Source: an uncultured Bacteroidota bacterium
GTDB taxonomy: Bacteria; Bacteroidota; Ignavibacteria; UBA10030; UBA8401
Length of the DNA: 64,000 nucleotides
Reading direction: 5' to 3'
Assembly (NCBI GenBank): GCA_963827085.1
Contig: CAWGZY010000002.1
Location: forward strand, 261,889-325,888
Positions 2,660-56,022 of the stretch are shown piece after piece; position 1 is the stretch's first letter; the number at the start of each line of letters is the position of its first letter. The notes below the pieces were generated by a model. That model ran no database searches, was not told the DNA's origin, and saw nothing but the letters and a program-made list of their open reading frames with translations. Position numbers and translations under genes: made by a program.

Positions 2660-2911
2660 TCAATGCGCCGCTTTCAACATCTCCGGCGTAAACTTATTCA
2701 GCTTTACGACCCTCGCTTCTTTCCGGCTCATTGACGGAACAACCATCCTCGCCTGCATCTCGTTCTCCGCTTCGATGATGACGAAACCTGTGTGGTCGCC
2801 GGAGGCGCATCCCCATTCAAAATGTGTCAGGTATCCCGGCGCTTCAACTTGCTTGAGGACATGGGCACAATCATCTTTTGTATGGGGCGATTCTATTAAG
2901 TATCTATCCAT
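2660..2911 (-). CDS. Small conserved hypothetical protein (83 aa from the ATG at 2911, or 105 aa from 2977)
   Basis: ORF with an aagggag RBS 6 nt upstream of the ATG at 2911. No recognisable family. Confidence 0.4.
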   Translation of the reverse strand: MDRYLIESPHTKDDCAHVLKQVEAPGYLTHFEWGCASGDHTGFVIIEAENEMQARMVVPSMSRKEARVVKLNKFTPEMLKAAH

Positions 2912-3003
2912 GCTAACTCCCTTCTTCCTATAGAACCAACTGGCTTCTTTCAACCATTGAAAAAAATTCTCTCTCAAATCCCAAGGGGGATGGCCTCGCC
3001 AGA

Positions 3004-3058
3004 CGCAAAGTCGCTAAGATTTCTTGATGAAATCCATTTTGCGTCTTAGCGACTTTGC
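3004..3058. repeat. Long perfect hairpin (16-bp arms cgcaaagtcgctaaga / tcttagcgactttgcg), family 4. Related to the hairpin at 40320-40399 and to the interior of the element at 56224-56358.
   Basis: Inverted repeat read directly in the sequence. The core gcaaag..cgctaaga is shared with the other copies. Confidence 0.7.
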
Positions 3059-3091
3059 GCAAGGTGTTGAATCCCAGATTTTTCATACGTC

Positions 3092-3700
3092 TTACTTCTT
3101 CGCGTGTTCGGCGTAATCGTAGGGGTAAAAAAGATACAGTGCGTCCGAACTTTCCGGAGACCACTCCGGCACCTTATGTTTCACCGGCTTGATATGGCGA
3201 AGATAAACAACGAGTGCGTGGCGGTCTTCCTCGGTCATGTTGGAAAATCCCGGCCATGGCATGGTCGTCGGCGCGAAAAATCTCCCATCATGCGAAATAC
3301 CGCTGCGCAACACCAGCTTCACCTCGTCATCCGTACGCCGGGCAAGACCTGTTTCGGCGTCAGGAGTCAGATTTCGTGAAAAAGAAGTTCCGGCTTGTTT
3401 AAGTTCAAACTTGGCTCCGCCCGCGAGGAATTCATTCCAGTTCGGCCCCTGGTCTCCCTGCGGCGTGTGGCAATCGCTGCAATCCGAGTATGACATGATA
3501 TATTGTCCCCGCTGGGCAAGAAGTCGTTCAACGGGATCGTCGATTTTCTCCAGCGACGATGCGACCGCTTCTGCGTGAGGGTTGCTAAATGCCTCACGGG
3601 GAAGCAAATCAAAGGGCGGAATAAGATACAGGAACGCAAGAAATCCTATCACTATCAAACATGCCGCTACGATACCGACCCATTTCAATATCTTCTTCAT
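3092..3700 (-). CDS. Membrane-anchored mono-heme c-type cytochrome
   Basis: N-terminal TM helix and a single CxxCH (CSDCH). 4-bp ATGA overlap with the upstream cytochrome gene. Confidence 0.8.
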   Translation of the reverse strand: MKKILKWVGIVAACLIVIGFLAFLYLIPPFDLLPREAFSNPHAEAVASSLEKIDDPVERLLAQRGQYIMSYSDCSDCHTPQGDQGPNWNEFLAGGAKFELKQAGTSFSRNLTPDAETGLARRTDDEVKLVLRSGISHDGRFFAPTTMPWPGFSNMTEEDRHALVVYLRHIKPVKHKVPEWSPESSDALYLFYPYDYAEHAKK

Positions 3701-5049
3701 GGCCGCACCTCCTTTGCTCGGTCAACACGCATCGCAAAATTTTTCTCTGCACCGGAAGAATTCTGTGATACGGGTTTTTGCTGATCATCCGCTTCTTTCA
3801 TGGGATAGACCGGCGTCGGAATCTGTTCTTTCAGGATTAGCATTCTAAATTTACCCCACAAATACGAGAAGATGTTCGGCTTATCAGGATCGGGGATTTT
3901 GTGACTCACGGCAGGAACCGTCCGCAGGTAGGCGACAATGGCGTTTTGATCATCTTCTTTTAATGCAGCAAGCGCCGCCCACGGCATCGGGAAGGGGAGA
4001 AACTTCCTTCCATCGCGCGAGATTCCCTGAGTAAATGCTCTTTTGATTTCCTGATCGGTCCAGTCCCCCAATCCGGTTTCCTTGTCCGAAGTGAGGTTCC
4101 GCGCAACGTACTTTCCGAACGGATAGAGGTCAAACGTCAATCCTCCCGATAACTGCGACCCCTCGACAATATGGAGATCTTCGGTATATCTGGAATGACA
4201 TCCCCCGCATCCGATGGTCCGGACGAGGTATTTTCCCCGCTGGACAGGGTCAGCCTTTGCTTGAGCATCGAGCTTGCTATAAAATTCCTTGACTTCATTT
4301 TCATTCATCTTCCACACGGGTTTGCGTGCGATTGAAACGATGTAGTTTGCAAGGTTCCACATCTCTTTGTCGCTCGCTGTGCCGGCGTACGACGGCATCG
4401 GTGTTCCGTCAATGCCTGTGCTGAACCGCAGATAAATATCTCGCGCGGTCGCCCCTCCGCGGAAGGTCCATGGCTCCGTCAGGTTCACCGCATTGGTTTC
4501 AAAATTCCATTCATCCTGAAAATCTGTTGCCGCCGCGCCCGTTCCGGCGCCGTCGGTTCCATGACAATCAGCGCACTGCAATTTTGCGTAGACTTTTTTC
4601 CCGGCTGCAATGCTTGCGGGCGAATACGGAACTGGAGTTCCTACACGAATGGGACGGGGTTTATCTTTTTGAAAGCGGGGCGAGAATGTCTTCACATAAT
4701 CGACCACTTCTTTTAATGAATCGCCTTTGATGAACGGCGACCAATCCGGCATTGAGGTCCCATGCAAGCCGTTTTTTATCGTTGTTGTCAGGTCTTCATC
4801 CGTCGGAAGGCTTCCGGATTCCGTCGAGCGAAACTTGAACATGCCAGAAGTAAAATTCCGGGGTCGGGGATTGAGCAGCGCCGAAGCGACGCCATCCCCT
4901 TTTCCCGTTGTCCCATGACATTGAACGCAATGCATAGTATAGATGGATTTTCCCACGGCGGACCGGGAAACCGCTTGCGGAAAGGCGGTCGACGCGCTCC
5001 ACATCAATACCGCAAAAACCATACACGTGGTTTTGGAAAACGGTTTCAT
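3697..5049 (-). CDS. Tri-heme c-type cytochrome (three class-I cytochrome c domains)
   Basis: Signal peptide MKPFSKTTCMVFAVLMWSASTAFPQA. Three CxxCH motifs (CVQCH, CADCH, CGGCH), each in a GxxGxG context. Start chosen at the ATG at 5049 rather than 5103. Confidence 0.8.
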   Translation of the reverse strand: MKPFSKTTCMVFAVLMWSASTAFPQAVSRSAVGKSIYTMHCVQCHGTTGKGDGVASALLNPRPRNFTSGMFKFRSTESGSLPTDEDLTTTIKNGLHGTSMPDWSPFIKGDSLKEVVDYVKTFSPRFQKDKPRPIRVGTPVPYSPASIAAGKKVYAKLQCADCHGTDGAGTGAAATDFQDEWNFETNAVNLTEPWTFRGGATARDIYLRFSTGIDGTPMPSYAGTASDKEMWNLANYIVSIARKPVWKMNENEVKEFYSKLDAQAKADPVQRGKYLVRTIGCGGCHSRYTEDLHIVEGSQLSGGLTFDLYPFGKYVARNLTSDKETGLGDWTDQEIKRAFTQGISRDGRKFLPFPMPWAALAALKEDDQNAIVAYLRTVPAVSHKIPDPDKPNIFSYLWGKFRMLILKEQIPTPVYPMKEADDQQKPVSQNSSGAEKNFAMRVDRAKEVRP

Positions 5050-7578: not shown

Positions 7579-7614
7579 GCAGATGTCGGACATCTGTTGA
7601 AATTGCGAGCATGT

Positions 7615-7927
7615 GACCTTCATCTCGTTCCCAATCTCTGATTGGGAACGGAGTAAAGCTGAAGCTCCGCTTCACGGGTGGGTCGAAGGGACATCATTGG
7701 CTGCAACATTCGTTCCCAAACGGAGTTTGGGAACGAGATAAACTAGATAAAATCTGCATTTTAATTATATACCGAACATGAATTTTTATCATAACTTTCC
7801 GTTGACTTTCATCTCGTTCCCAATCTCTGATTGGGAACGGAGTATGGCAGAAGCTCGGCTTCACAAATGGAACGAAGGGACGACATTGGCGGCACAATTC
7901 GTTCCCAAACGGAGTTTGGGAACGAGA
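7615..7927. repeat. Tandem pair of a ~125-bp structured repeat (family 3): copy 1 at 7615-7738 and copy 2 at 7805-7927. Each is flanked by ~31-bp inverted ends that are themselves hairpins (gttcccaat ctctg attgggaac, and gttcccaaa cggag tttgggaac).
   Basis: Copies are ~88% identical. Each is preceded by a tgacYttcatctcg motif. A family-1 TIR fragment (ggacatctgttgaaattgc) sits at 7589-7608. Confidence 0.7.
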
Positions 7928-8087: not shown

Positions 8088-8133
8088 AGTAGTCCAATTT
8101 GAAAGACCATTATTTTGAGGAAGGATGTATCCG

Positions 8134-8442
8134 ATGTATGCAGTCGTTGAGATCGCCGGGCAGCAATACAAAGTGAACCCCGAAGAAAAGCTTTACGTGC
8201 CGAGGCTGGAAAATGAAGTCGGCAGCAGCGTGAAATTCGAAAAAGTGCTCCTGCTTTCCAACGACAAAGAAGTCAAAGTCGGCGCGCCCGTCGTTTCAGG
8301 CGCTTCGGTGAATGCAAAAGTACTTGCGCATGTGAAGGACGAAAAGGTTATTGTCTTCAAAAAGAAGAAGCGTAAAGGCTACCGCGTGAAACGCGGCCAT
8401 CGGCAGCAATACACCCACATAGAAATTACATCGATAGCGTAA
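8134..8442 (+). CDS. rplU: 50S ribosomal protein L21
   Basis: MYAVVEIAGQQYKV...KKKKRKGYRVKRGHRQ. Start preferred at the ATG at 8134 (10 nt after ggaagg) over 8125. Confidence 0.9.
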   Translation: MYAVVEIAGQQYKVNPEEKLYVPRLENEVGSSVKFEKVLLLSNDKEVKVGAPVVSGASVNAKVLAHVKDEKVIVFKKKKRKGYRVKRGHRQQYTHIEITSIA

Positions 8443-8456
8443 GGGAGATTTGAAGT

Positions 8457-8710
8457 ATGGCTCATAAAAAAGGGGGCGGAAGCTCCCGTAACGGACGAGA
8501 CAGCAATGCCCAGCGGCTTGGCGTAAAGCGCTTCAGCGGCCAAAAAGTTCTCGCTGGAACAATCTTAGTGCGCCAGCGGGGAACAAAATTTCATCCCGGC
8601 TCTAATGTGGCAAAGGGGGGGACGATACGTTGTTCGCCCTGACTGACGGCATAGTGAAGTTTCAACGGGTCGGAAAAACACGACAGGCAATTTCAATCGT
8701 CACGGCATAA
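8457..8710 (+). CDS. rpmA: 50S ribosomal protein L27, with an apparent single-base frameshift near 8612-8623
   Basis: Frame 0 reads [51 protein letters not shown] and then hits a premature stop ([11 protein letters not shown]). The +2 frame continues [33 protein letters not shown], the canonical L27 C-terminus. One G is missing in gtgg(g)c or in the G7 run. Confidence 0.8.
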
Positions 8711-12303: not shown

Positions 12304-12427
12304 CCAAACGTTTCACGAGGACAAAAAAATTTTATTACCGGCAGAGTGATATGCGGTGCAGGGAGTTCAATAGCCGGCAGGTTATCGACGCCGGCTTCGA
12401 TGTCAACAAGATTCGGCGTTGGCTTCA

Positions 12428-13276
12428 TCAGAAAAGGATATCCCGCACGGTATGCCGCGGTTCGTAACCGAGCATTTCGTGTGCCTTACGGTACGACAGC
12501 AAGGAGGCTGCGCCGGTGAAATCCTGTACGAAGTTTTTGACTTCGGGAAAATAATTTTTCAGCAAACTTTTAGAATCAATGCCCGTCCAATTATCTTTCG
12601 CGGAGATAAAGAATACCTCGTGGAGAGAATCCAGGTCTTTTTCCACCGCCAGCCTGTGCGCCTGCGCTGCATCATACACATGCACAAACGACCAAAGGTT
12701 GTTGCACCATTTATGATGTTCCGAAACGAGCGCTTTATACTTTTCCCGTTCACTCCCTTCGGGGACCCAAATCCACGGCTGGCGGAGGCAGACTGTGCGA
12801 ATGCCGTACCGAGCAGAATACGTCCGGCAAATTTGTTCACCGATCACTTTGCTCAATCCGTACGGGTCTTGCGGCCGCAGCGGATGCTTCTCATCAATCG
12901 GTATATATTCCGGAGCCATGTACTTCGTCATAAACGCAAAGCCGAGCGTTGACTCGCTCGACGTAAACACAACTTTCTTGACATTGCTCCGCGCCGCCGC
13001 CTCAAGCACGTTAAACGTGCCGCTGACATTGGCCGTAAACACCTTGTCTGCCGGATGGTTTAACGGATGGGAAATGCCGGCCATGTGGACGACAACATCG
13101 TAGCCTTTAAGCGCTTTCACCATATTCTCAAGGTTCAGGATATTAATATCATGAAACCAGATACCGGCCCTTGGAGGAACGACGTCGAGGACGCCGACAG
13201 TATGTTTGTGCTGCAGCAGTTCGTCGACAACATATTTACCGACTAAGCCGCTCCCGCCTGTAACGAGGATTTTCAT
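12428..13276 (-). CDS. NAD-dependent epimerase/dehydratase family (extended SDR)
   Basis: MKILVTGGSGLVGKYVV (GxxGxxG), YxxxK context, 282 aa. Confidence 0.8.
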   Translation of the reverse strand: MKILVTGGSGLVGKYVVDELLQHKHTVGVLDVVPPRAGIWFHDINILNLENMVKALKGYDVVVHMAGISHPLNHPADKVFTANVSGTFNVLEAAARSNVKKVVFTSSESTLGFAFMTKYMAPEYIPIDEKHPLRPQDPYGLSKVIGEQICRTYSARYGIRTVCLRQPWIWVPEGSEREKYKALVSEHHKWCNNLWSFVHVYDAAQAHRLAVEKDLDSLHEVFFISAKDNWTGIDSKSLLKNYFPEVKNFVQDFTGAASLLSYRKAHEMLGYEPRHTVRDILF

Positions 13277-13315
13277 GCTTGGCTCCTCAATAAAAACGCA
13301 AACGATAAAAAATAG

Positions 13316-13806
13316 TTAGATGCAGTTGGGAAAAAACAGCTGTACTTCGAACTTTTGCAGATGGACAGGAATCTGAATATTCCTGAATCCTTGCTTTGTC
13401 AACCCGCCCGAAAATTTTTCTGCCTGGTCGGGGTCTCCGTGAACAAGAAAGATATTTTTCAATTTGTGTTTCTTGACGACAAATTCACCATCGCCTCCTG
13501 GATGTATGCACTGTCCTTCAGCATTATGCCGCAAAGGTCGCGCGTTGCGGGAGTGCAGTAAATCGGTCCGTCGTAGCCGTTCTTGACAAGATTAGGAAGA
13601 TTGCCTGCGTGGTCGATATGTGCGTGCGACAAAACCGGCGCATCGATCGATGAGGGGTCGAACGGAAAATTCTTGTTCCGTTCAAACGTATCCGCTCGTT
13701 TGCCCTGGAACAAGCCGCAATTAAGAAGAATATTCTTTCCGTTGATATGAAGAAGGTGCATCGAACCGGTAACCGTCCGCGTCGCACCGATAAATTCAAC
13801 TATCAT
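13316..13806 (-). pseudogene. Remnant of an MBL-fold/beta-CASP RNA-metabolising hydrolase. The N-terminal 115 aa (HAHIDHAG motif) and the C-terminal ~70 aa (FLVHGDPDQ) survive in different frames; about 290 aa in the middle are missing.
   Basis: ORF 13459-13806 reads [23 protein letters not shown]...[15 protein letters not shown] 13316-13534 reads ...NIFLVHGDPDQAEKFSGGL. Full-length family members are ~450 aa. Confidence 0.55.
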
Positions 13807-13901
13807 AAGATGTACACCGGAATAAGATCGTTATGCCACGGTACGATACGAAAAGACGGGGCGGTTTTCAAGGACAGAGTCGCAATGAAAATTCTAATCG
13901 C

Positions 13902-15557
<1,656 letters not shown>

Positions 15558-28396: not shown

Positions 28397-28469
28397 GTCC
28401 CCATCGTCTAGAGGCCTAGGACCGGAGCTTTTCAAGCTTCTAACACGAGTTCGAATCTCGTTGGGGACA
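28397..28469 (+). tRNA. tRNA-Glu (UUC)
   Basis: GTCCCCATCGTCTAGAGGCCTAGGAC C GGAGC TTTTCAA GCTTC ... ACGAG TTCGAAT CTCGT TGGGGAC A. Closely resembles bacterial tRNA-Glu. Confidence 0.9.
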
Positions 28470-28477
28470 CACAATCG

Positions 28478-28513
28478 CCACTTAATTCGAAAGTTTTAAG
28501 TGGTTTTGTTTTT
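28478..28513 (+). terminator. Terminator after tRNA-Glu (ccacttaa ... ttaagtgg + TTTTGTTTTT)
   Basis: 8-bp stem, 10-nt loop, T-run. Confidence 0.65.
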
Positions 28514-28692
28514 TCATCCCACACCACATTTTGTATAAAAATTAGCAACACTTTATACAAAAGTGATCTGCACCCCAAAAAGTATACACGTAGTTAAGCC
28601 ACAGTTTGCTTGAGCAGTTGATGTTCAAATTGCTCGGACGATAGGTATCCGAGCGCGGAATGCTTGGCATGTGCAAACGGATGGTTTCTATA

Positions 28693-29232
28693 TTATTCCT
28701 GATTATGCACCTTGGCCGAAGCCAGCCGGACAAACACTGGCACTATCATCCTATGGAGGAGAAATGCTATCGGGGGGCCGATGAGAGCCCATGCAACGAT
28801 CGCGTGCAGTGTTGCCCACCACAACGAACGGATTGCGCCAAGAGTATCTGTGTGCACCATCGCTAGTATTTGAAAAGCAGAGAGAGAGATGGGCGAGGCA
28901 CCGGAAAGAACCTCACCGAGTCGTATAAGCACCGGAAGAAGAAGCAACTGGAGCGGAAACGCAAAATAATTCACGAGTTGGACGGCGGGGAGGTTCAGGT
29001 CGAAGGCAATGCTCGCGGCTGTGCACAGGATGGTCGTTGATCCAATCACGGGAAATGTGCTGATCGTAGCCCCGGACACAACACTCAACGCCAGCTTCTC
29101 CGGAGAAAGTCCCTGAGTCAGAAGGGAGAGAAGCGGGCGGAGAAGCGTTCGCTGAAGGAAAAGTTTTATCTGCTGTATGACGAGCATTAGTTCATCGGAA
29201 AGGGGATGTTTGAAATTATGGACGAAGCTCAC
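28693..29232 (-). CDS. Small polytopic membrane protein (DUF2062-like)
   Basis: ...LTQGLSPEKLALSVVSGATISTFPVIGSTTILCTAASIAFDLNLPAVQLVNYFAFPLQ... Transcribed divergently from the CarH-like promoter. Confidence 0.5.
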   Translation of the reverse strand: MSFVHNFKHPLSDELMLVIQQIKLFLQRTLLRPLLSLLTQGLSPEKLALSVVSGATISTFPVIGSTTILCTAASIAFDLNLPAVQLVNYFAFPLQLLLLPVLIRLGEVLSGASPISLSAFQILAMVHTDTLGAIRSLWWATLHAIVAWALIGPPIAFLLHRMIVPVFVRLASAKVHNQE

Positions 29233-29346
29233 AATCTACGTGATTGAACATCAAGTTCTTTCCGCTGGTTCCGCAATGGTGGTCGAAGAGGCAGCGACCG
29301 TTCTCACCTGTCCGGCGGGAATCTGAGGGGGGTATGCAAAAAAAAC

Positions 29347-29398
29347 TTGACAAATCGAAATTTCTACATTATCTTAAACCGTGCATATCGTGCATATC
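29347..29398 (+). promoter_or_regulatory. Promoter of the CarH-like operon: TTGACA, 17 bp, TATCTT, immediately followed by the tandem direct repeat CGTGCATAT CGTGCATAT (candidate operator)
   Basis: ttgaca at 29347-29352, tatctt at 29370-29375, repeats at 29380-29397. Sits inside the N-terminal extension of the track ORF, so the true start is the GTG at 29419. Confidence 0.5.
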
Positions 29399-29418
29399 AT
29401 CTAAAACAGGTATTTGCG

Positions 29419-30312
29419 GTGAAAGCGACCTACTCAACGGCGGATCTCGCCAAGCTCTTCGACGTCAACGAATCGACCGTTAAACGGTGGTCGGACGCTG
29501 GTGATTTGCAGTGTGTTAAGACTCGGGGGGGACACCGGCGGTTTTCCGTGGGATCGGTCATGCAGTTCGTGCATCAACACAAACTCTCTGCACCCCTTCT
29601 TTCCGCTGAGGGCATCAAGGACGAAAATCTCCGAGTCCATGTAATCGCAGGCAATATTCAGAAGCTAGTACCGGAATTCAAAAAGGAAATACTCGCAGGA
29701 AATGTGAATGGGGCACTAAATGTTGTCCGAACTGCCTTCGCCGCGAAGCCAAGTTTTCTTGAAATCTGTTCAACGGTTGTCTTCCCTGCCCTCAGGGAAA
29801 TCGGCGAAGAATGGCATGCGAAAACAATTTCCATCGACCGGGAACACGTCGCCACCAACACCGTAAAGGAAGCGTTGACCCTCTTCCAGTCGGATATCCA
29901 CCACAAAGAACCGAACGGATTGAAAGCCCTGTGTGCCTGTATTGAAGGAGATTTGCACGATGTTGCAATCCGTTGCGTAGGATATTACCTCGAGACTGAA
30001 GGCTGGCACGTTACGTTTCTCGGGCAATCGTCTCCGTCGAAGTCGGTCGTCAATGCGATCAATGCAAACAAGCTGGACCTTATTGCACTCAGCGCAACGA
30101 TCGTAGAGAATGAACGAAAATTTCTTCATGCGATGAATAACGACATCCAACCTGCAGCCCGTCGCACGCGAGCAATGCTGGCTGTCGGCGGACATAATAT
30201 CAGGGCACGATTTGGCAAACGGATTAAGGCCGATCATCTTTGCGATTCAATCGCTGAGTTTGAATTAATCGCCCGCCCGGACAACTACAACCATCGAAAG
30301 AATGGCCGATGA
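29419..30312 (+). CDS. CarH/LitR-type light-sensing transcription regulator: MerR-type HTH fused to an adenosylcobalamin-binding domain
   Basis: HTH reads (M)KATYSTADLAKLFDVNESTVKRWSDAGDLQCVKTRGGHRRFS. Four-helix-bundle signature EEWHAKTISIDREH (W-x9-E-H). B12-binding core GDLHDVAIRCVGYYLETEGWHVTFLG...AVGG. Confidence 0.8.
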   Translation: MKATYSTADLAKLFDVNESTVKRWSDAGDLQCVKTRGGHRRFSVGSVMQFVHQHKLSAPLLSAEGIKDENLRVHVIAGNIQKLVPEFKKEILAGNVNGALNVVRTAFAAKPSFLEICSTVVFPALREIGEEWHAKTISIDREHVATNTVKEALTLFQSDIHHKEPNGLKALCACIEGDLHDVAIRCVGYYLETEGWHVTFLGQSSPSKSVVNAINANKLDLIALSATIVENERKFLHAMNNDIQPAARRTRAMLAVGGHNIRARFGKRIKADHLCDSIAEFELIARPDNYNHRKNGR

Positions 30313-30341
30313 AACAATCGGGCAGTCTCTATGAGGATTAG

Positions 30342-31366
30342 GTGATTACAGCTTTGCTCGAACATAATGTCCTCCCCGATTGGCTGATCCGGATCGGTAT
30401 TCGGAGGCTGCTGCATCGGCGGCTAAAGGAAGAGGCCAAAGCCGACTGCGAACTGCAGCAACAGCACTTCATGAATCTCGTCGAGGAATTGAGAAAGAGT
30501 CCGATCGCGATCCACACTGACGATGCGAACGAACAGCATTATGAGCTTCCCACAGAATTTTTCAAACTCATCCTCGGGAAGCACATGAAGTACAGTTCGG
30601 GGTACTGGAACGACGGCGTTAACAATTTGGACCGATCAGAAGCTGACATGCTTGCGCTCACCTGCCAACGAGCGCAGATCACCGACGGGATGAGCATTCT
30701 TGAATTAGGGTGCGGATGGGGATCCTTGTCGTTGTTTATGGCGGAGCAATTTCCAAAGGCGCATATTACGGCCGTCTCAAACTCGCGCACGCAGAAATCT
30801 TTTATCGACGGCGAATCTGCCCGGCGCGGCCTGAAGAACGTCGCTGTTATCACTGCGGACATCAACAACTTCCAACCGATGAACAATTCGACCGGGTCAT
30901 ATCGGTGGAAATGTTCGAGCACATGAGAAATTATGAAAGGTTGATGGCAAAGGTGGCCGGATTCTTACATCCCGCGGGGAAACTCTTCGTCCACATTTTC
31001 ACTCATAAAGATTTTGCCTATACATTTGAGGTCAGGGATAACTCCGACTGGATGTCACAATATTTCTTCACCGGCGGAATCATGCCCAGTGATCATTTGC
31101 TCCTCTATTTCTCGAAAAACCTGGCGGTCGAAGAACATTGGAGAGTCTCGGGCATCCACTACCACAAAACGAGTGAAGCCTGGCTTGCCAACATGGATGC
31201 CCACAAAGAAAAGATCTTCCCGATTCTTGCTCAAACCTATGGCAACGGCCAGGCTACAAAATGGTGGGTATCCTGGAGAGTATTTTTTATGTCATGTGCT
31301 GAATTGTGGGGTTTCAACGGCGGCGAAGAATGGTTTGTGAGTCACTACTTTTTCACGAAAAGGTAA
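30342..31366 (+). CDS. Cyclopropane-fatty-acyl-phospholipid-synthase-like SAM methyltransferase, interrupted by a 1-nt frameshift near 30896
   Basis: Frame 1 (30342-30926) reads ...LELGCGWGSLSLFMAEQFPKAHITAV...ITADINNFQP. Frame 2 continues DEQFDRVISVEMFEHM...GFLHPAGKLFVH, which is the canonical CMAS motif. GTG start with a gagga RBS. Confidence 0.75.
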
Positions 31367-31371
31367 CCTGC

Positions 31372-32681
31372 ATGAGTAAGAAACATTCAGCGAGGACAAG
31401 CATCGGAATTGTCGGCACCGGCATCGCGGGGATGGGTTGCGCATACTTTTTGCATACGACCCACGACATCACAATCTACGAGCAAAATAATTACATCGGG
31501 GGGCACACAAATACGGTGACGGTGGACGAGGACGGCACGGAGATACCTATCGATACCGGCTTCATGGTCTACAATGAGGTTACCTATCCGAACCTTGTAA
31601 GACTGTTTCATGAGTTGAATGTTGAAACAAAGAACACTTCCATGTCGTTCAGCGTTCAGCATCTGCCATCGGGTCTTGAGTATTCCGGATCAAGTCTGAA
31701 CCATTTATTCGCGCAACGCAAGAATATCCTCAGTCCGCGTTTTATCCGGATGATATGGCAGATCAACCGTTTCAATAACGAGTGTCCTGAAGTTCTGGCA
31801 GATAAGAAATTCGCATCCTATACACTGAAGAGTATGTGCGGGAACGAAGATTCGGCGACGATGTTTTGAAAAAATACCTTGTACCCATGAGCTCTGCGGT
31901 CTGGTCAACACCTCCGGACCAGATGCTCCGGTTTCCGGCTGTCACGCTCGTGCGGTTCTTTAAGAATCACGGGTTTCTTGGCCTGGACACGCAACACCAA
32001 TGGCGCACCGTTGTTAACGGCACAAGAAGTTACCGGGATAAGCTCATCGCTCCGTTTGCAAAAAGAATCCTTACCGGCAACCCGGTCGTGAATGTCATGC
32101 GCAAGAAAAGGAAGGTCGAACTGCGGCTCAAAGATGGCGGGAGAGCGCTGCACGATCGCGTAATCCTTGCTTGCCATGCGGACGAGGCTCTGAACATGCT
32201 GGACAAGCCCACGACGCTCGAAAAGCGATTGCTCGGAGAATTCAAATACCAGCACAACAGGGCCACACTTCACACTGATGCGAGTCTTATGCCGAAGACA
32301 AAGCTCGCGTGGTCATCATGGAATTACCGCCTCGACACCAATGCCGACGGAACCTCAAAATCTTCCACGATCTACTACATGAACAGTCTTCAGAACGTGT
32401 CGAAAAAGAGGGATTATTTTATTTCCATCGATGATCCCGGGACTGTTAATCCCGGTTCGATATTAAAAGAAATTGATTACACGCATCCGGTCTTTTCCCT
32501 GGGAGCGATCACGGCGCAGAGAGAGCTGTCCCTTATCAATAAGGAAGGTCCGTTATATTTCTGCGGCAGTTATTTCAAATATGGGTTTCATGAAGATGCG
32601 TTCACTTCAGCCCTCGAACTTTGCAGGTCATTGATGGACGTGCCGATTTGGCCACCCCGGGAGGAGTTGCGTCAGCCATGA
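31372..32681 (+). CDS. NAD/FAD-binding amine-oxidase-like oxidoreductase (fatty-acid desaturase-like, UfaD-type), interrupted by a 1-nt frameshift near 31840
   Basis: IGIVGTGIAGMGCAYFL (dinucleotide-binding fold) ...; second frame ERRFGDDVLKKYLVPMSSAVWSTP... One G is missing in cggg(g)aacg. ATGA overlap with the next gene. Confidence 0.75.
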
Positions 32682-33451
32682 ATTCACGCATGTTCGACTG
32701 CACTGTGATGCATCACCGTCTTGAACCTCTCAGGCACAGATTTGTGTACAAAGTTTTTATGTTCTATCTCGATCTCGATGAGTTGGACGCCATCGATGCC
32801 GGCCTTACGTTCTTCAGCAGGAATCGGTTTAATCTCTTTACCCTCCGCGACCGGGACCATTTGACCTTTCATAAGTCGTCCATCAAGGAGAATATCAGGG
32901 AATACTTGAAATCCGCGGGGATCGATATCGGCAGCGGCAAGATCTATCTACTGACCAATCTCCGCACGGCGGGATACGTTTTCAATCCCGTATCGTTCTA
33001 CTTTTGCTTCGATGAAAAGGGCGATCCTGTGTGTGCCATTCCCGAAGTTGGAAACACATTCAGCGAGCTAAAACCATATCTGCTCACCCGCGATAGCTTT
33101 CGGAAGGGTACGTTCCGGGAGCGGATAGTGAAATACTTTTACGTGTCGCCATTTTTTGATCTCGACACAACATTCGATTTTCAGCTCCGGGTACCCGGCG
33201 AGACACTCCGTATCCAGATCGATGATTACAAGGAAGGGAGAAAAGCATTTCTCAGCTCTCTTGTCGGAAGAGAAAAGCCCCTGACCGATTTCAATCTTCT
33301 CCGTTCCTTTTTCCGCATTCCCTTTGTTACGCTGAAGGTGATTGCGCTCATCCACATTCAAGCAGGATTGCTCTATCTGAAGAAGCTCCCTTATCACAAA
33401 AAATCTGAAAACCCGGACCTACAAAAGGAAGTTTACATATGGAACAAGTGA
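32678..33451 (+). CDS. DUF1365-family protein
   Basis: MNSRMFDCTVMHHRLEPLRHRFVYKVFMFYLDLDEL... is typical of DUF1365, always found beside CFA-synthase-like genes. Confidence 0.75.
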   Translation: MNSRMFDCTVMHHRLEPLRHRFVYKVFMFYLDLDELDAIDAGLTFFSRNRFNLFTLRDRDHLTFHKSSIKENIREYLKSAGIDIGSGKIYLLTNLRTAGYVFNPVSFYFCFDEKGDPVCAIPEVGNTFSELKPYLLTRDSFRKGTFRERIVKYFYVSPFFDLDTTFDFQLRVPGETLRIQIDDYKEGRKAFLSSLVGREKPLTDFNLLRSFFRIPFVTLKVIALIHIQAGLLYLKKLPYHKKSENPDLQKEVYIWNK

Positions 33452-34701
33452 CACGACAGCCAATGGCGCTCCCCCGCTTGCTCGGCAGGCTTACCTCTCT
33501 CTACCAACGGATTGTTTTGGGCCTTCTGTCAGAAATGACGCAGGGCTTCATGAGGATTGTGCTGCCGGACGGCAAGGTTTTCGAGTTTGGCGACAAGAAT
33601 TCTCCGGACAAAGCAACGATCCGCATCATTTGCGAATCCTTTTTCCGGAAGTGTGTTCTCTACGGCGATGTCGGATTCGGAGAAGCATATGTGGACGGAG
33701 ACTGGGACACTGACAGCGTCGCAGCCGTTATCAAGTGGTTTTTGCTCAATGTCGAAAATGCTCCCACCGTATCGGGTTCCAGGAAAAAATTCATTCCGGG
33801 GAATTTCCTCAAGGTGCTTAACAGGATCTATCACAAACTCCGGGCAAACAGCATCCGGGGAAGCCAGAAGAACATTGCCGAGCACTACAACCTGAGCAAC
33901 GATTTCTTCAAACTATTTCTGGATAAAACGATGACGTACTCCAGCGCGTTCTTTTCGAGAGGTGACGAGACGCTGGAAAGTGCCCAGGAAGAAAAATATG
34001 ACCGGCTTTGCCGCAAATTAAGGCTTCAGCCTTCCGACCGTCTCCTCGAGATTGGCAGCGGATGGGGTGCTTTCGCACTCTATGCAGCCAGGAATTATGG
34101 CTGCAGAATTACGACAACGACAATTTCGGAAGAGCAGTACACGTATGCTAAGGAGCTGTTTCAGCGCGAGCATCTCGACAAGCGGATCGAAATCAAGCTT
34201 GCTGATTATCGGACGCTCAATGGATCTTACGACAAGATCGTCTCTATCGAGATGCTCGAAGCAGTGGGACACGAGTACCTCGAAACGTATTTTGCGAAAT
34301 GCCACGAGCTTCTGAAGAAGAACGGTATTCTTGCGTTTCAGGTCATTACCTGCGCTGATTCACGATACGAGTCGTTGCGAAAGAGCATCGATTGGATTCA
34401 AAAACACATTTTCCCCGGCTCTCTGCTTCCGTCGATCGGTGTTCTGAACAAGGCCATCAACAGAACTGGGGACCTGGTGATGCAGCATATGGAGGAGTTC
34501 GGCCTTAGCTACGCACGAACACTGGCACAATGGAGAGAAAATTTCAATAGCCGGGTCGGTCAGGTTCGCCTGCTGGGGTTTGATGAGAGATTCATTCGTA
34601 CGTGGAACTATTATCTCTCCTATTGCGAAAGTGCGTTTGCGATGCGCAACATCAGCGTTGTGCAGATGGTCTATACAAGACCAAATAACCTTTCGCTCTA
34701 A
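33439..34701 (+). CDS. Cyclopropane-fatty-acyl-phospholipid synthase family methyltransferase (intact, 420 aa)
   Basis: LEIGSGWGAFALYAA...DYRTLNGSYDKIVSIEMLEAVGHEY. Confidence 0.85.
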   Translation: MEQVTRQPMALPRLLGRLTSLYQRIVLGLLSEMTQGFMRIVLPDGKVFEFGDKNSPDKATIRIICESFFRKCVLYGDVGFGEAYVDGDWDTDSVAAVIKWFLLNVENAPTVSGSRKKFIPGNFLKVLNRIYHKLRANSIRGSQKNIAEHYNLSNDFFKLFLDKTMTYSSAFFSRGDETLESAQEEKYDRLCRKLRLQPSDRLLEIGSGWGAFALYAARNYGCRITTTTISEEQYTYAKELFQREHLDKRIEIKLADYRTLNGSYDKIVSIEMLEAVGHEYLETYFAKCHELLKKNGILAFQVITCADSRYESLRKSIDWIQKHIFPGSLLPSIGVLNKAINRTGDLVMQHMEEFGLSYARTLAQWRENFNSRVGQVRLLGFDERFIRTWNYYLSYCESAFAMRNISVVQMVYTRPNNLSL

Positions 34702-34736
34702 GACTGATCACCTACAACTTAGAACACCATCATACA

Positions 34737-35360
34737 ATGAAATATTTTGTCTCTTCATTATTTACGTTACTTTTTGCAGGAGCAACATGCATGGCCACCA
34801 AAGAACCAGCATACAAGGTGATCAAGGCGGATGGAGATTTCGAAATCCGGGAATACGTATCGTACTGTGTCGCAGAAACCTTTACAGACACCTCCGACTT
34901 CGATGAAGCATCGAACCAAGCATTCAGAAAGCTGTTCCGGTATATCTCGGGAGACAACCGTTCAAAGACAGAAATTGAGATGACGGCCCCCGTAACGACA
35001 TCGAAGTCTGAGAAGATAGAAATGACAGCGCCGGTGACATCGACAAAAACGGCCGGCGGGTATCTAACTGCCTTTGTTATGCCGGCGCAATTATCCCTCG
35101 GTACGACGCCTATACCCAATGATTCATCCATACAGATCCGAGAAATTCCTTCGCGCAGAGTTGCAGTAATAAAGTTTTCAGGCCGTTGGACTTCTTCGTC
35201 GATGGACGAACATGGAGGGCGACTGATGGAGTGGATCTCAAAAAACGGACTCGTCCCGACGGGTGAACCTGTTATTGCCCGATATGATCCTCCGTTTATG
35301 CCATGGTTTCTACGGAGAAATGAGATACAGATTCAGATAAGACCGTCGCAAGAACCGTAG
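34737..35360 (+). CDS. SOUL/HBP heme-binding family protein with a signal peptide. Contains the tandem peptide repeat EIEMTAPVT(T/S).
   Basis: Signal MKYFVSSLFTLLFAGATC, then ...YxVIK..DFEIREY... and a C-terminal RYDPPFMPWFLRRNEIQIQI. Confidence 0.65.
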   Translation: MKYFVSSLFTLLFAGATCMATKEPAYKVIKADGDFEIREYVSYCVAETFTDTSDFDEASNQAFRKLFRYISGDNRSKTEIEMTAPVTTSKSEKIEMTAPVTSTKTAGGYLTAFVMPAQLSLGTTPIPNDSSIQIREIPSRRVAVIKFSGRWTSSSMDEHGGRLMEWISKNGLVPTGEPVIARYDPPFMPWFLRRNEIQIQIRPSQEP

Positions 35361-35446
35361 TTGTTACCCGGAAACGATCTCATGGCGGCGCTCGTTGAGC
35401 AACGAGCCGTATTGCATTCAACTTACACTTAACCACACGGTGACTT

Positions 35447-35845
35447 ATGTTCATAAAACTCTATCTCATCACGCTCCCTGTGTTTTTTGCAATTGATATG
35501 ATTTGGCTTGGGGTTGTCGCCAAGAACTTCTATCGCGAACAAATTGGCTTCTTGATGACACCGGATATTAACTGGCCCGCAGCCATCATCTTCTATCTGC
35601 TTTTCATTGCCGGATTAATTCTCTTTGTTATTTCTCCGGCCGTGGAAAAACGGATGTGGCTTGATGCGCTGCTGATGGGTGCGCTGTTTGGTCTCATAAC
35701 ATACGCCACTTACGACCTCACAAACCTCGCAACAGTGAAGAACTGGCCGGTACTGGTCACAATAGTGGATTTAGCGTGGGGAGCAACATTGTCAGCGTCG
35801 GTCTCACTGATAAGCTATCTCATCGTCACAAAATTTGTATTATGA
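35447..35845 (+). CDS. DUF2177-family small membrane protein
   Basis: Four TM segments, 132 aa, ATGA overlap with the next gene. Confidence 0.55.
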
Positions 35846-36606
35846 ACTACTACCTTATCCTAGCTTCAGCGCTCTTTTCGTACATGACATTGTGCTTCAT
35901 TGTTTCTCTCATAAAAAAAAGAAATGATGTCGCCGACATCGCATGGGGGCTTGGCTTTGTTCTGCTTGCTTGGCTGGCTGAGTATTTTTCCAGATTTGCG
36001 GTTCGATCGTTGCTTGCCAATCTGCTGGTTACTCTTTGGGGATGCCGGCTGGCGTGGCATATATACCGTCGCAATCGGAATAAGGCTGAAGATTATCGTT
36101 ATCAGGCATGGCGAAAGGAATGGAAAAACTTTGCGCTTCGAAGCTTTCTCCAAGTCTATATGTTGCAGGGCATTCTCCTGTACGTCACCGCCCTTCCTGT
36201 GCTTTTCATCAATCACGCTCCGGCATCGCCGTTGGGATGGACGGATCTTGTCGGAATGGTGATTTGGTTGATCGGCTTTTCTTTTGAAAGCATCGGCGAC
36301 CGTCAACTGCGAGAATTCATCCGGCATCCGGCTAACAAAGGAAGAATCATGGATAAAGGCCTTTGGCGGTACAGCCGTCATCCCAACTATTTTGGTGAGG
36401 TCACTCAATGGTGGGGAATATTCATCGTTGCCCGATCACTGCCCGAGAGCTGGTGGACTGTCATTGGCCCGCTGACCATAACCGTCCTCATACTTTTTGT
36501 TTCTGGGGTCCCGCTTCTCGAGAAAAAGTACGTGGGGAGAGATGATTTTGAGGAGTATAAGAACCGTACGAGTATCTTCTTTCCACTGCCGCCAAAAGCG
36601 TCATGA
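35842..36606 (+). CDS. DUF1295-family membrane protein (steroid-5alpha-reductase / ICMT-like fold)
   Basis: ...[14 protein letters not shown]... motif, multi-TM. Confidence 0.7.
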
Positions 36607-36857
36607 AACCGCTTGAGGACCACGTCTTTTATTAATGGTTCAAAATCGTCTACATAGAGATTCTAGGATTTTTTCGAGTCAGAGTTAATAAGGAGTTCTT
36701 CAAAACAAATTAGCTTCGCTCACTTGATGTTTCCATCTTTAATTACTACGTTTTCCCGTGTTAGTTTTTGGAACGGAATTGCTAACAGACTGCTAACACG
36801 GTTCCCGAAAATCACCACGATTTTTGGCGAATCCAGACGAAATTCGATACCGAACCA

Positions 36858-36992
36858 GCTTTTCAAGCTTCTAACACGAGTTTGAATCTCGTTGGGGACA
36901 CACGATAACCACTTAGTTCGAGAGTTCTAAGTGGTTTTGTTTTTCTATCCCACGCCACATTTTGTATAAAATTGGGGACAATTTATACAAAA
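36858..36992 (+). repeat. Diverged duplicate (~87% identity) of the 3' half of tRNA-Glu plus its terminator and downstream ttgtataaa..tttatacaa palindrome. The original is at 28426-28562.
   Basis: agcttttcaagcttctaacacgagtttgaatctcgttggggacac ... ccacttagttcgagagttctaagtgg + ttttgttttt. The stem carries a compensatory a->g / t->c pair. Confidence 0.75.
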
Positions 36993-38045: not shown

Positions 38046-39625
38046 CGACAACATCGACATCGATCAGGGAAAGTGTTCCGTCCGTGAATCCCGCGACAGG
38101 GGAAACCATCGGGATGACGGAAGTGAATACCGTTGCCGATCTCAACGATGCAGTCGCTGGGGCCCGGAAGGTCCAGCCTGCCTGGGAGGCGGCCGGTTAT
38201 AGAGAACGTCGACGGCATCTCCTCCTCGTTCGCGACTATATCGTGACGAACGCGGAATTGCTCGCAGACATTATCTCCCGCGACACCGGAAAGACGAAAA
38301 TCGATGCGCTCAGTACCGAAGTGATGTCGGCAGCGATGGCGGTCAGCTACTATGCCGCGCACGCAGAAAAGATACTAAGGCGTAAGCGACTGAGCGGCGG
38401 GAGCCTTCTCACCTTCAACAAGCGCTCGTACGTCGACCGGGTGCCAATGGGTGTCGTGGGCATTATCAGTCCGTGGAATTATCCGTTCGCGATTCCAATC
38501 CACGAAGTTGCGATGGCGCTCATTACAGGAAACGCGGTCATTCTGAAGGTTGCCTCTCAGACACTCCTAGTCGGAAAGGCAATCCAGGATGCCGTGGCGG
38601 CGGGGAATTTTCCCCCCGGCATTTTCACGCTCATAAATTTGCCCGGGACGGTCGCGGGGAAAGGATTCCTCGAGTCGGACATCAACAAACTTTTCTTCAC
38701 CGGCTCCGTTGCCGTCGGCAAGCAGCTGATGGCGAAAGCGGCCGAGCGGCTGATTCCCGTCTCGCTCGAGCTTGGCGGAAACGATGCAATGATCGTCTGC
38801 CGGGATGCGAACGTGCACCGCGCTGTGAACGGAGCGCTTTGGGCAGGAATATCGAACGCCGGACAATCGTGCGCCGCAGTGGAGAGAATTTATGTCGAAG
38901 ATCCTCTCTATGAAGCGTTCGTCGCTCTTCTCAAGGAAAAGATGCATGGGCTGAAACAAGGACCGGATCAGAACTGTGACTTCGATGTGGGGGCGATGAC
39001 AACGAAAGAACAGATGAAGAAAGTGCAGGATCAGCTCCGCGACGCCAGATCGAAGGGGGGAAAAATATTTGAGAACCCTCCCTCCAACGGTGCGAATCTT
39101 ACGGGCATGTTCATCTCGCCGACAATAGTCGAAGACGCCACCGACGACATGATGCTGATGAAAGAGGAAATCTTCGGTCCGGTCCTTGGTGTCGCCAGGG
39201 TGAAGGACGTGGATGAAGCAGTACCAAAGGCAAATGCCTCAAGACTGGGGCTGACGGCTTCTGTCTGGTCCCGCAACAAGAAAAAGGCCCGCAGCATCGC
39301 CGCCCGGCTCGAAGTAGGATCGGTGATGATCAACGACCACCTCATGAGCCACGGACTTGCCGAGACACCGTGGGGCGGCTTCAAGGAATCCGGGATCGGC
39401 CGCACGCACGGTTATCTCGGACTGGAAGAGATGACGCAGCCCCGTGTCGTCATCGATGACATCCTGCCGGGCATGCAGAAAAATATGTGGTGGTATCCGC
39501 ACAACAGAAGGGTCTTCGATGGACTCCTTGGCGGACTACACGTCCTCTATTCAAAGAGTCTGACGAAGCGTCTGGCCGGCGTCTTTAAGCTTGTTCCGGT
39601 CTTCTTACGGAGTTTTCAAAAATAG
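38042..39625 (+). CDS. Aldehyde dehydrogenase family protein (ATG at 38042, ATGA-coupled to the SDR). The 704-aa track ORF beginning at 37511 is an artefact of an open upstream frame.
   Basis: ...ELGGNDAMIV...GQSCAAVERIYV... catalytic Glu and Cys motifs. Confidence 0.9.
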   Translation: MTTTSTSIRESVPSVNPATGETIGMTEVNTVADLNDAVAGARKVQPAWEAAGYRERRRHLLLVRDYIVTNAELLADIISRDTGKTKIDALSTEVMSAAMAVSYYAAHAEKILRRKRLSGGSLLTFNKRSYVDRVPMGVVGIISPWNYPFAIPIHEVAMALITGNAVILKVASQTLLVGKAIQDAVAAGNFPPGIFTLINLPGTVAGKGFLESDINKLFFTGSVAVGKQLMAKAAERLIPVSLELGGNDAMIVCRDANVHRAVNGALWAGISNAGQSCAAVERIYVEDPLYEAFVALLKEKMHGLKQGPDQNCDFDVGAMTTKEQMKKVQDQLRDARSKGGKIFENPPSNGANLTGMFISPTIVEDATDDMMLMKEEIFGPVLGVARVKDVDEAVPKANASRLGLTASVWSRNKKKARSIAARLEVGSVMINDHLMSHGLAETPWGGFKESGIGRTHGYLGLEEMTQPRVVIDDILPGMQKNMWWYPHNRRVFDGLLGGLHVLYSKSLTKRLAGVFKLVPVFLRSFQK

Positions 39626-51335: not shown

Positions 51336-54300
51336 ATGGATGACACAAGACCACAATCGCACCGTCAGTATTTACCATTGTGGAATTTCTGGCTTGCAGC
51401 GGCAGTCTGGACAGCCCTCATCGGTTTCTCCTTTGTGTACAATGTACATTCGACACGCTCCATGATGTCGCAAATGGCTCTCTTCGAAGCACGCAGGATT
51501 TTTGAGAGAAACATCGCAAGCAGTCATTGGGAGGCTGGTTCGCTCGGCCTTCAGCTCAACTTCGGATCGAACGCACTCACGCAAGGCCGCATCACGAGTT
51601 TAAAACTCGTCGACGAGAAAAACGCCCCCGATGTCTGGGAACGCACTTCCGTCGAGCGGCTTTCGCACGGAGAAGTTGAAATAGCCGATGTCATGACGGT
51701 CGATGGGTTTCCGTATCTTCGCGTGATGAAACCGCTCGTCGTTACCAGGCGCTGCCTGGATTGCCACTCGGCGCAAGGCTACTCCGAGGGAGAAATAAGG
51801 GGCGGGATAAGCGTTGCCGTACCGCTCAAATCTTCGCAGGAAATCGAAGCAAGAGATCAGAAGGCTTCCCTTCTGTGGCATTTCATTATCTATCTTGTCG
51901 GGCTCGGCGGAATCATAGGGGGAACGATAAGCGTTCAGAAGAAAAGGCGGGCTCACGAATTTGCCCGTGAGGCTCAAGTCTCCGCAGAAAGGAAGCTGGC
52001 ATCTCAGGAGCAATATCTTAAAGCGATCGTTCAGGGCTCGCCGATTGCTGTGGTCGTTTTGGATTTACATCAGATCATCGAGTCATGCAACGAAGCATTC
52101 GAGAACATTTTCGGATACTCCATAACGGAAGCGGTCGGCAAGAACCTGGATGATTTGATCGTTCCGGCTGACCGCAGAACTGAAGCGGAACAATTGACGC
52201 GATCGTCCAACAGCGACGGAAGGGTTCACAAGGAATTGACGTGCCGCCGGAAGGACGGATCACTTGTCGCTGTCAAGGTTTTCGCCAAGTCGATTTCCAT
52301 TAATGGACTCGAAGTGGGAGTCGTAGCGCAGTACGTCGATATCAGCGAGCAGAAGCAATCTAAGGAGAACCTGCAGAGAGAGAGAACGCTCCTTCGGACA
52401 CTCATCGACAACCTGCCAGACGCAATCTACGCCAAAGACACTTCCTGCCGTAAGACCATTGCCAATCCTGCAGACGTGCATAATATGGGGTTGCAGTCAG
52501 AAGCTGACGTCTTAGGCAAAGACGACTTTGACCTTTTCCCAAAAGATGTCGCGGAGGGATTCTTTGCTGACGACCAATCGGTTATTCAAACCGGCATACC
52601 CGTGCTCAATAGAGAAGAATATTTCATTGACGCAGAAGGCCGAAAGCGCTGGCTGGAAACTTCTAAACTTCCTTTGAAGGATGAGCGGGACAAAATTATT
52701 GGCATCATCGGCATCGGTCGCGAAATTACGAAAAGAAAAAATGCCGAAGAAGCACTCAAGCATGAAAAAAGTGTTATGGAAGCCCTGATGGACAACGTCC
52801 CGGACAGCATCTACTTTAAAGACCGCCAATGCCGGCTGACGAAAATCAGCCGAAAGATGTTGAATGATTTGAAAATGAATGATATGAGCCAGGTCATCGG
52901 AAAAACGGACGTGGATTTGTTCGGCGAGGAATTTGGCCGGAAAACACTGGAGAACGACGAGCGCCTGATGGCAATAGGTAAACCAATCGTGGGGTTAACC
53001 GAGAGCAGGAAGTTGGAGGACGGGAGTTTCTATTGGACGTCAACCACGAAGGTACCGCTTCGGGACAACAGCGGCCAAATCGTCGGGCTGGTCGGCATCA
53101 CACGCGAAATCAATGAGTTCATGAAGGCGCAGGAGGAGCGCGAACGTGAACGTAACCTCCTCCGCACGCTTATTGATAACATACCTGACTACATCTATGT
53201 GAAAGACCGGGACGGCCGTTTTATTGTATCCAATACAGCCGTCGTGCATCAAATGGGGCTTGCTTCCGAGAACGAGCTTTTAGGAAAAACTGATTTCGAC
53301 TTTTTCCCCCACGATCTGGCTGCAAAATACTACGCAGAAGAACAAGCGATTATCCAGGCTGATAAGGGAATCTACAATCATGAAGGTCCCTCCGTCGATG
53401 CCAGCAAAGAAGAGAAAGATCGATGGGTTACGACGAACAAAGTCATTCTTCGGGATGGTCAAGGCAGCATCACCGGGTTCGTCGGTATCGGCCGCGACAT
53501 CACTGAGCGAAAACGGGCGGAAGAACAAATTCGTTCCCAATTATCGATTATCGAGGAACAGAATCTCGCGCTCACAACTGCAAATGAGAAAGCACTGGAA
53601 GCCACTAAAGCAAAAAGTGCATTTCTCGCCAGCATGTCGCATGAGCTGCGAACTCCTCTGAATGCCATCATCGGCTACAGCGAAATGCTGGACGAAGAAA
53701 TGGGCGACAATGGCGACGACCGGTATCGCGCAGATGTTGAGAAGGTACGTTCGGCCGGCAAACATCTTTTAGGATTGATCAACGATATTCTCGATCTCTC
53801 GAAGATCGAATCCGGCAAGATGGAGTTGTATCTCGAAGAGTTCGACCTGAAAAACGTGATCGGGGAAGTGGCTTCGATGGTTCAGCCCCTGATCGCTCAG
53901 AATGAGAATACTTTTGTGTTGACGGGGAACGAGGAGTCTCGGCTTGTGCGGCTCGATCTCACGAAGGTCCGACAGATCCTCTTTAATCTTATCAGTAATG
54001 CGTCGAAGTTTACGCAGAATGGCACCGTGTCGCTCGAGGTCGCTTCCGTTCCCGGCGACGCCGCTCCACGGCCGGCAATTCGCTTCAGGGTTTCCGATAC
54101 CGGAATAGGAATTACGAAAGAACAAGAAGAACGGCTTTTTAAAGAGTTTGCTCAAGCGGACGGCTCCACGACTCGCAGGTACGGCGGCACCGGCCTTGGC
54201 CTTGCGATCTCGAAACGATTTTGTGAAATGATGGGAGGTTCGATAGGCATAGAAAGTTCCTCAAGTAAAGGAACTACATTTGTCGCTACTTTACCGCAGC

Positions 54301-55569: not shown

Positions 55570-56022
55570 TCACCGAAGCACCACGCCCGATTCCCCGGAT
55601 GTTGCGAGAACTGCGCCCGTATTCGAACCTTTGACTCTAATCCCCGAATGTCCCGCAGCTTGAACATTCGCATAATACGAATCCAACAGAAGAGCGACAG
55701 CTTTCTTGTCATCTTCGCTGTAACTGTTCCATCGCTCTTCGTTAAATACGCATGTCGATGACGGTGTATGGTACTCGATCACGAATCCTACTTGGATCCA
55801 GCTTTCAACGATGTGGCGCCTCACTTCCGGATCGTTGGTATAGATATCGTCGGCGTTCCGGCTTCCAAGATAACCTTTGATCACGAAAACGGCGCCACCA
55901 AGGACAAACAACAAGAGAACAAATACGATTTTTCTGTTCTTCCGATTGCGCTTCAAAATAAGTTCGGAGTTGGCCTTCATACCCTCCGTAAACATCTTTT
56001 CTTCATCTTCTGCAAATCCCAT
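55570..56022 (-). CDS. Hypothetical membrane-anchored protein
   Basis: 150-aa ORF with one TM helix (IVFVLLLFVLGGAVFVI). Confidence 0.4.
   Translation of the reverse strand: MGFAEDEEKMFTEGMKANSELILKRNRKNRKIVFVLLLFVLGGAVFVIKGYLGSRNADDIYTNDPEVRRHIVESWIQVGFVIEYHTPSSTCVFNEERWNSYSEDDKKAVALLLDSYYANVQAAGHSGIRVKGSNTGAVLATSGESGVVLR

Follow-up and report, generated by a model that had tools for sequence, protein, structure and literature searches.

The stretch of DNA analysed here, referred to below as the window, comprises 64,000 nucleotides of an 871,951-bp contig from an uncultured Bacteroidota bacterium and contains three plus-strand genes whose reading frames are each interrupted by a change of a single base (Table 1). 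The first is rpmA, which encodes ribosomal protein L27 and follows rplU, the gene for ribosomal protein L21, in an order that is common to all related loci. The other two are adjacent accessory genes, namely a SAM methyltransferase of the CMAS family (CFA-synthase-like) and an FAD/NAD-binding oxidoreductase that resembles amine oxidases, and both are located in an 8.4-kb segment next to a tRNA gene. A sequence-only reading of the window had proposed that each of the three genes is split by a one-base frame change, and the reading frames and the matches of the fragments to Pfam profiles agree with that proposal.

Table 1. Positions of the genes and sequence features discussed in the text, in window coordinates.
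Feature	Position	Strand	Remarks
rplU (L21)	8125..8442	+	Intact in the window; contig_14193 (L011/L098) has an extra G at ~8182, CCCC[G]GAAGAAAAG, and its L21 call is 81 aa long
rpmA (L27)	8457..8710	+	61-aa product, with the rest of the C-terminus out of frame; G8 gives a full-length L27 of 84 aa
G7 homopolymer, site of the rpmA lesion	8615..8621	+	G8 in the same-strain loci L096 and L097
Segment apparently variable between strains, 8.4 kb	28472..36889		Holds both broken accessory genes; begins directly after tRNA-Glu (28397-28470)
CMAS-family (CFA-synthase-like) SAM methyltransferase	30342..31366	+	Split into 30342..30926 and a second frame to 31366; 341 aa when intact
FAD/NAD-binding amine-oxidase-like oxidoreductase	31372..32681	+	Split into 31372..31869 and a second frame to 32681 (split at 31869 and 31836); 436 aa when intact

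The first frame of rpmA begins with MAHKK and reaches a stop codon at 8642, and the C-terminus of L27 resumes in frame 3 and continues to the end of the gene. At the lesion the window reads GTG GCA AAG GG- GGG GAC, i.e., seven G are present where eight are required. The 61-aa product of the window covers positions 1-53 of the 79 positions of the Pfam profile Ribosomal_L27 (PF01016) and the repaired protein covers all of them (1-79); on the TIGR00062 model, the repaired 84-aa protein scores 126.7 bits (cut-off 90.35) over profile positions 1-83 of 83, which qualifies it as an equivalog.

Two types of comparison bear on this lesion. Ten related contigs (L001-L010) encode an identical L21 together with an intact 84-aa L27, and they spell the site GTT GCA AAA GGC GGC GAC, that is, VAKGGD. 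Because their flanks are just 84-87% identical to the window, these loci represent other species and are unsuitable as same-strain controls, and we used them for codon comparison only. All ten read VAKGGDD and none reads VGKGGDD. Relative to their AAA GGC GGC GAC, three synonymous changes made a run of eight G in the rpmA gene of the window's lineage. On the 3' side of the shift, the differences from the relatives in the ten-relative alignment are mostly synonymous, and selection still acts on the shifted frame.

The second comparison involves contigs of the same strain. An 84-aa L27 identical to the repaired one is recorded from ERZ25039480 contig_29285 (1.51 Mb; locus L096) and from ERZ25039535 contig_8545 (locus L097), both of which read AAAGGGGGGGGAC at the lesion. 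The alignment of L097 with the window extends over 4353 nt with 0 mismatches and one gap, the rpmA G, and that of L096 extends over 6255 nt with 3 substitutions in addition to the same gap. The G7 allele and the truncated 61-aa L27 are found on three contigs, namely the window's own contig, ERZ25039529 contig_14193 and ERZ25039486 contig_111701; assemblies of one strain alternate between G7 and G8. Of the two repairs that had been suggested from the sequence, an additional G in the G7 run is the one that the same-strain contigs contain, and the alternative insertion in gtgg(g)c is rejected because the ten relatives as well as the same-strain G8 contigs read VAKGG, not VGKGG.

The segment that holds the two accessory genes encodes a DUF2062 protein, a CarH-like regulator, the CMAS methyltransferase, the amine oxidase, a DUF1365 protein, a CFA synthase, and SOUL, DUF2177 and DUF1295 proteins. 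Homology of the window to contig_29285 and to contig_14193 ends exactly at the 3' end of the tRNA-Glu gene; it resumes at 36890 in contig_29285, and no resumption was seen in contig_14193. The window's cluster is replaced in contig_29285 by ~27 kb of other DNA, inspected at its ends only, with a large serine recombinase, Fic and a UvrD-like helicase at the tRNA-Glu end and PrimPol/VapE, a deaminase and a LexA-like protein at the end near an SDR gene. The tRNA-Glu side of contig_14193 carries the same recombinase as contig_29285. Judging from these assemblies, the segment is a tRNA-adjacent locus that varies between strains.

The regulator shares with CarH, the B12-dependent photoreceptor repressor, only the architecture HTH_17 + B12-binding_2 + B12-binding, and its score of 54.5 bits against the NCBIfam CarH model NF052513 (cut-off 400) does not qualify it as a CarH equivalog, so that "CarH-like" is the defensible name. 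The operon that includes the methyltransferase and the oxidase is intact both in a Logan contig (L013, run ERR11571142, 8.2 kb) and in a 91%-identical relative (L014/L114), and the earlier fallback suggestion of a decaying CarH operon finds no support there. The closest relative of the oxidase in genome collections is likewise intact (91% amino-acid identity; contig_136938 of the MAG MFD01476.bin.1.210).

The Logan contig L013 also locates the two lesions precisely. It aligns with positions 28680-36799 of the window at 99.926% identity over 8122 nt, with 4 substitutions and 2 gaps, and the two gaps are exactly the lesions of the methyltransferase and of the oxidase, both of which are intact in L013 (1663..2688, 341 aa, and 2694..4004, 436 aa, respectively). 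In this alignment, the methyltransferase gene of the window lacks an A between 30872 and 30873, AACTTC[A]CAACCGATGAA (TTC[A]CAACC), and the oxidase gene lacks a C between 31826 and 31827, ACACT[C]GAAGAGTATG (ACACT[C]GAAGAG). Neither lesion is part of a homopolymer. Restoring the A yields the peptide DINNFTTDEQFDRV, and 71 relatives of the methyltransferase cross the site in a single HSP and read F-T/S-x-D..FDRVVSVEM, not FQPD. Restoring the C yields SYTLEEYVRERRFG, and all 80 of 80 relatives of the oxidase cross the site in one HSP and read TL.EYV.

The two fragments of the methyltransferase match positions 9-120 and 113-245 of the 273 positions of Pfam CMAS, and the intact protein scores 136 bits over positions 9-244; the pieces of the oxidase match positions 1-81 and 138-268 of the 443 positions of Pfam Amino_oxidase. 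When intact, the two proteins are full-length members of the CMAS and Amino_oxidase families, respectively. Copies of the same methyltransferase and oxidase that are truncated in different ways occur on other contigs (P0020, P0024, P0025), and no additional stop codons or indels indicative of further decay were found in the window's copies of the two genes. The sequence-only reading had placed the repairs at ccg(g)atgaa (~30896) for the methyltransferase and at cggg(g)aacg (~31840) for the oxidase; the L013 alignment and the 71 and 80 relatives put the true sites 23 nt and 13 nt away, and the repaired peptides that it had derived, FQP-DEQ and KSMCGERRFG, are wrong. Its generalization that all three genes have lost one G from a G run applies to rpmA only, the other two having lost an A and a C outside homopolymers.

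To place the three lesions in context, we compiled a census of differences between the window and same-strain loci that cover ~99% of it. The census comprises 88 unique differences, 23 of which are indels. Over this ~99% of the window, the same-strain comparison revealed no ORF-breaking lesions in the window beyond the three already described; all other ORF-breaking indels lie in the sister assembly, and the ORF of the window is whole at each such site. A Pfam scan of ten overlapping same-strand ORF pairs or unassigned ORFs returned, apart from the two known splits, separate genes or no match. In contig_14193, the ORF-breaking indels (at 8182, 12922, 20247, 23746/8, 24241, 24313 and 26763) disrupt rplU, an epimerase, a GT1 glycosyltransferase, an AMP-binding enzyme that is left in three pieces, and KsgA. 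Those in contig_29285 (at 39221, 43961, 46107, 51440 and 62699) disrupt an aldehyde dehydrogenase, a TPR/CHAT protein, a 248-aa protein and two large sensor kinases. The broken rplU of contig_14193 serves as a control, in that it demonstrates that private indels hit essential genes in sister assemblies. Each sister assembly carries several private ORF-breaking indels per ~28-36 kb and nearly no substitutions across most of the compared sequence, and this combination of private frameshifts in essential genes with an almost complete lack of substitutions argues for consensus indel error and against gene decay. Another G7 run (29525) and a C7 run (51096) are without discrepancy among the assemblies.

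The discrepancies are associated with a particular tetranucleotide. Sixteen of the 41 discrepancy clusters have a GTAC at a distance of 5 nt or less, compared to 1.9% expected (p = 1.4e-17; ~20-fold), and GTAC itself is depleted in the window, with 149 sites against ~250 expected. The GTAC-linked differences are found window-wide, for example at 29669, 39221-39225, 43961, 46107, 51440-51446, 55770 and 62699, and at 39221-39225 each of four assemblies has a version of its own. Methylation of GTAC is known from bacteria (PMC12679398), and systematic Nanopore errors linked to sequence motifs and methylation, including SNP-like artefacts, have been documented (bioRxiv 10.64898/2026.01.14.699587). 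The clustering is likely to reflect methylation of GTAC in this organism and would then constitute a Nanopore error signature. The concentration of discrepancies at one palindromic 4-mer resembles basecalling errors at methylation motifs, whereas the preponderance of A/G substitutions stressed in the literature differs from the many single-base indels seen here. None of the three lesions of the window is located at GTAC. Five indels lie outside both GTAC and homopolymers, and three of them (8182, 24241 and 31827) adjoin the hexamer CGAAGA/TCTTCG, which occupies 0.73% of positions. This hexamer may represent another modified motif, of the GAAGA type; the events are few and it was chosen after seeing the data, so we treat it as a lead only.

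The sequencing platform can be traced through a shared contig. Contig_136938 of the NCBI MAG MFD01476.bin.1.210 and contig_136938 of ERZ25039480 are the same contig of 22,407 bp, which identifies the "contig_N" assemblies of the ERZ2503xxxx series as products of the Microflora Danica long-read study. The data of that project are Nanopore only and were assembled with Flye and polished with one round of Medaka, and the study names low coverage and homopolymers longer than 6 as correlates of a reduced coding density (PMC12313526). From the contig naming, the accession series and the shared identical contigs, we infer that the window's own contig originated in the same project and on the same platform. 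The earlier suspicion of ONT data is thus substantiated for the contig family, and by this inferred membership it extends to the window. We had considered L013 as a short-read check and dropped it, because its own GTAC-to-GGAC difference at 29669 disqualifies it as an orthogonal-platform control; L107 also contains GTAC-to-GGAC differences, and both contigs may, on account of these differences, be Nanopore-derived as well.

Since same-strain assemblies carry all three genes intact, the breaks are most likely consensus errors. We consider it highly probable (about 0.93), on the strength of these sequence comparisons, that the three frameshifts are absent from the organism itself and arose in the consensus of a metagenome assembled from Nanopore reads only. 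This agrees with the preference for sequencing or assembly error over true pseudogenes that had been expressed from the sequence alone. Each of the three genes has an intact allele in another, independent assembly of the same strain whose flanks are identical or nearly so (99.9-100% identity), and the sister assemblies contig_14193 and contig_29285 contain different ORF-breaking indels that are not shared. The errors would be of two kinds. In rpmA, a homopolymer of eight G would have been called as seven, and in the methyltransferase and the oxidase a single base outside homopolymers, A and C, respectively, would have been dropped. Low local coverage or strain mixture over the 28472-36889 segment is a plausible contributor to the A and C deletions, and part of the overall error load could stem from modified bases at GTAC and perhaps also at CGAAGA. 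The rpmA lesion, a G8 read as G7 that flips between assemblies of the same strain, is similar to the homopolymer-length errors known from Nanopore-only Flye/Medaka assemblies, but just one of the three lesions fits that pattern.

The strongest alternative, which we nevertheless regard as improbable, is that the lesions are real, the methyltransferase and the oxidase having recently become pseudogenes within an accessory operon that varies between strains, and G7 being a true allele of rpmA. The recurrence of G7 in three contigs from three assemblies agrees with a true allele, although a systematic undercall of the homopolymer predicts the same recurrence; the presence of G8 in assemblies that differ from the window by 0-3 substitutions over 4-6 kb argues against it, as does the nature of rpmA, a core ribosomal gene whose shifted C-terminus remains conserved. 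With regard to the accessory genes, for which this alternative carries the most weight, their loss should be tolerable given that sister strains lack the whole accessory segment, and L013 is another assembly with 4 substitutions relative to the window, so that the A and C deletions could be differences between strains. Against this, neither of the broken accessory genes has acquired further stops or indels, and the private indels of the sister assemblies in rplU, ksgA and other genes constitute a background that easily covers 3 lesions in 64 kb. True pseudogenes would be expected to show a lesion fixed in the lineage accompanied by further decay; what we find instead are intact same-strain alleles and, in rpmA, a conserved shifted frame.

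It is far less probable still that rpmA is recoded and that exactly the canonical L27 arises from a programmed -1 ribosomal frameshift on G_GGG_GGG or from slippage during transcription of the G7 run. The one-base frame change in a conserved ORF is a feature that the gene has in common with frameshift pseudogenes and with the programmed frameshifts of dnaX (-1) and prfB (+1), and its heptamer is a formally perfect X_XXY_YYZ: the codons are AAG GGG GGG ACG, and a -1 slip of both tRNAs would re-pair perfectly and restore the frame with unchanged residues. The predicted fold of 8605-8700 is moderately stable (-28.3 kcal/mol, z = -2.0, 7/200 shuffles as good), but the z-score is weak and the hairpin pairs the G run itself instead of lying 5-9 nt downstream of it, as a stimulatory element would. 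Moreover, the relatives encode the same peptide as AAA GGC GGC GAC in a single frame and without a slippery site. In contrast to programmed frameshifting, where a heptamer conserved among relatives and a downstream stimulatory structure are expected, rpmA thus has no conserved slippery site and no convincing stimulatory element, and unlike both frameshifting genes and pseudogenes it has intact same-strain alleles; the G8 of the identical-strain assemblies makes recoding unnecessary. Reliance of an abundant ribosomal protein on inefficient frameshifting is implausible as well. Equally doubtful is the related notion that the G7/G8 tract is a real variable or slippery site and that G7 cells still make full-length L27 by either route. 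If this were true, an uncultured Bacteroidota lineage would possess a ribosomal protein gene, rpmA, that is recoded or phase-variable.

If the three lesions are consensus errors, as we prefer to read them, the organism most likely has an intact L27 and an intact CarH-like/CFA-type lipid-modification operon, and the frameshifts, as an artefact of the data, are of low biological interest. They are nevertheless of practical relevance: public protein collections (sources NCBI and ENA) already contain the 61-aa truncation of L27 as well as the methyltransferase and oxidase fragments. Nanopore-only soil MAGs of the window's lineage contain about one ORF-breaking indel per 4-20 kb, which calls for caution in counting pseudogenes, in reading "gene decay" and in calling strain SNPs from such MAGs. 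With many of the discrepancies located at GTAC, polishing that takes motifs or methylation into account would probably eliminate a large part of them.

The census also revealed differences other than ORF-breaking indels. At 55770, immediately 5' of a GTAC and within a 150-aa ORF (55570-56022, minus strand), the window has G and the same-strain loci L111 and L113 have C; the protein variant of the window is on record solely from its own contig (P0102 vs P0103), and the G is probably a substitution error in the window. Most of the substitutions relative to contig_14193 fall in 12376-15117, along with a messy patch of indels at 13480-13692, and the flanks of this block are nearly identical. Recombination or a mixture of strains could have produced this block, or one of the assemblies may be of low quality here. 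At ~18920, contig_29285 carries a 1.44-kb insertion (L100 16924-18365) that is absent from the window; neither of the two small ORFs in it, 68 and 73 aa long, has a Pfam match.

An Rfam scan of the whole window detected two tRNAs and nothing else. Next to rplU, the spacer that separates it from the Asp-Al_Ex transporter gene contains two 125-nt direct repeats (7614-7738 and 7803-7927), which have no Rfam match and in which short spurious ORFs occur on both strands; the two copies are 88% identical.
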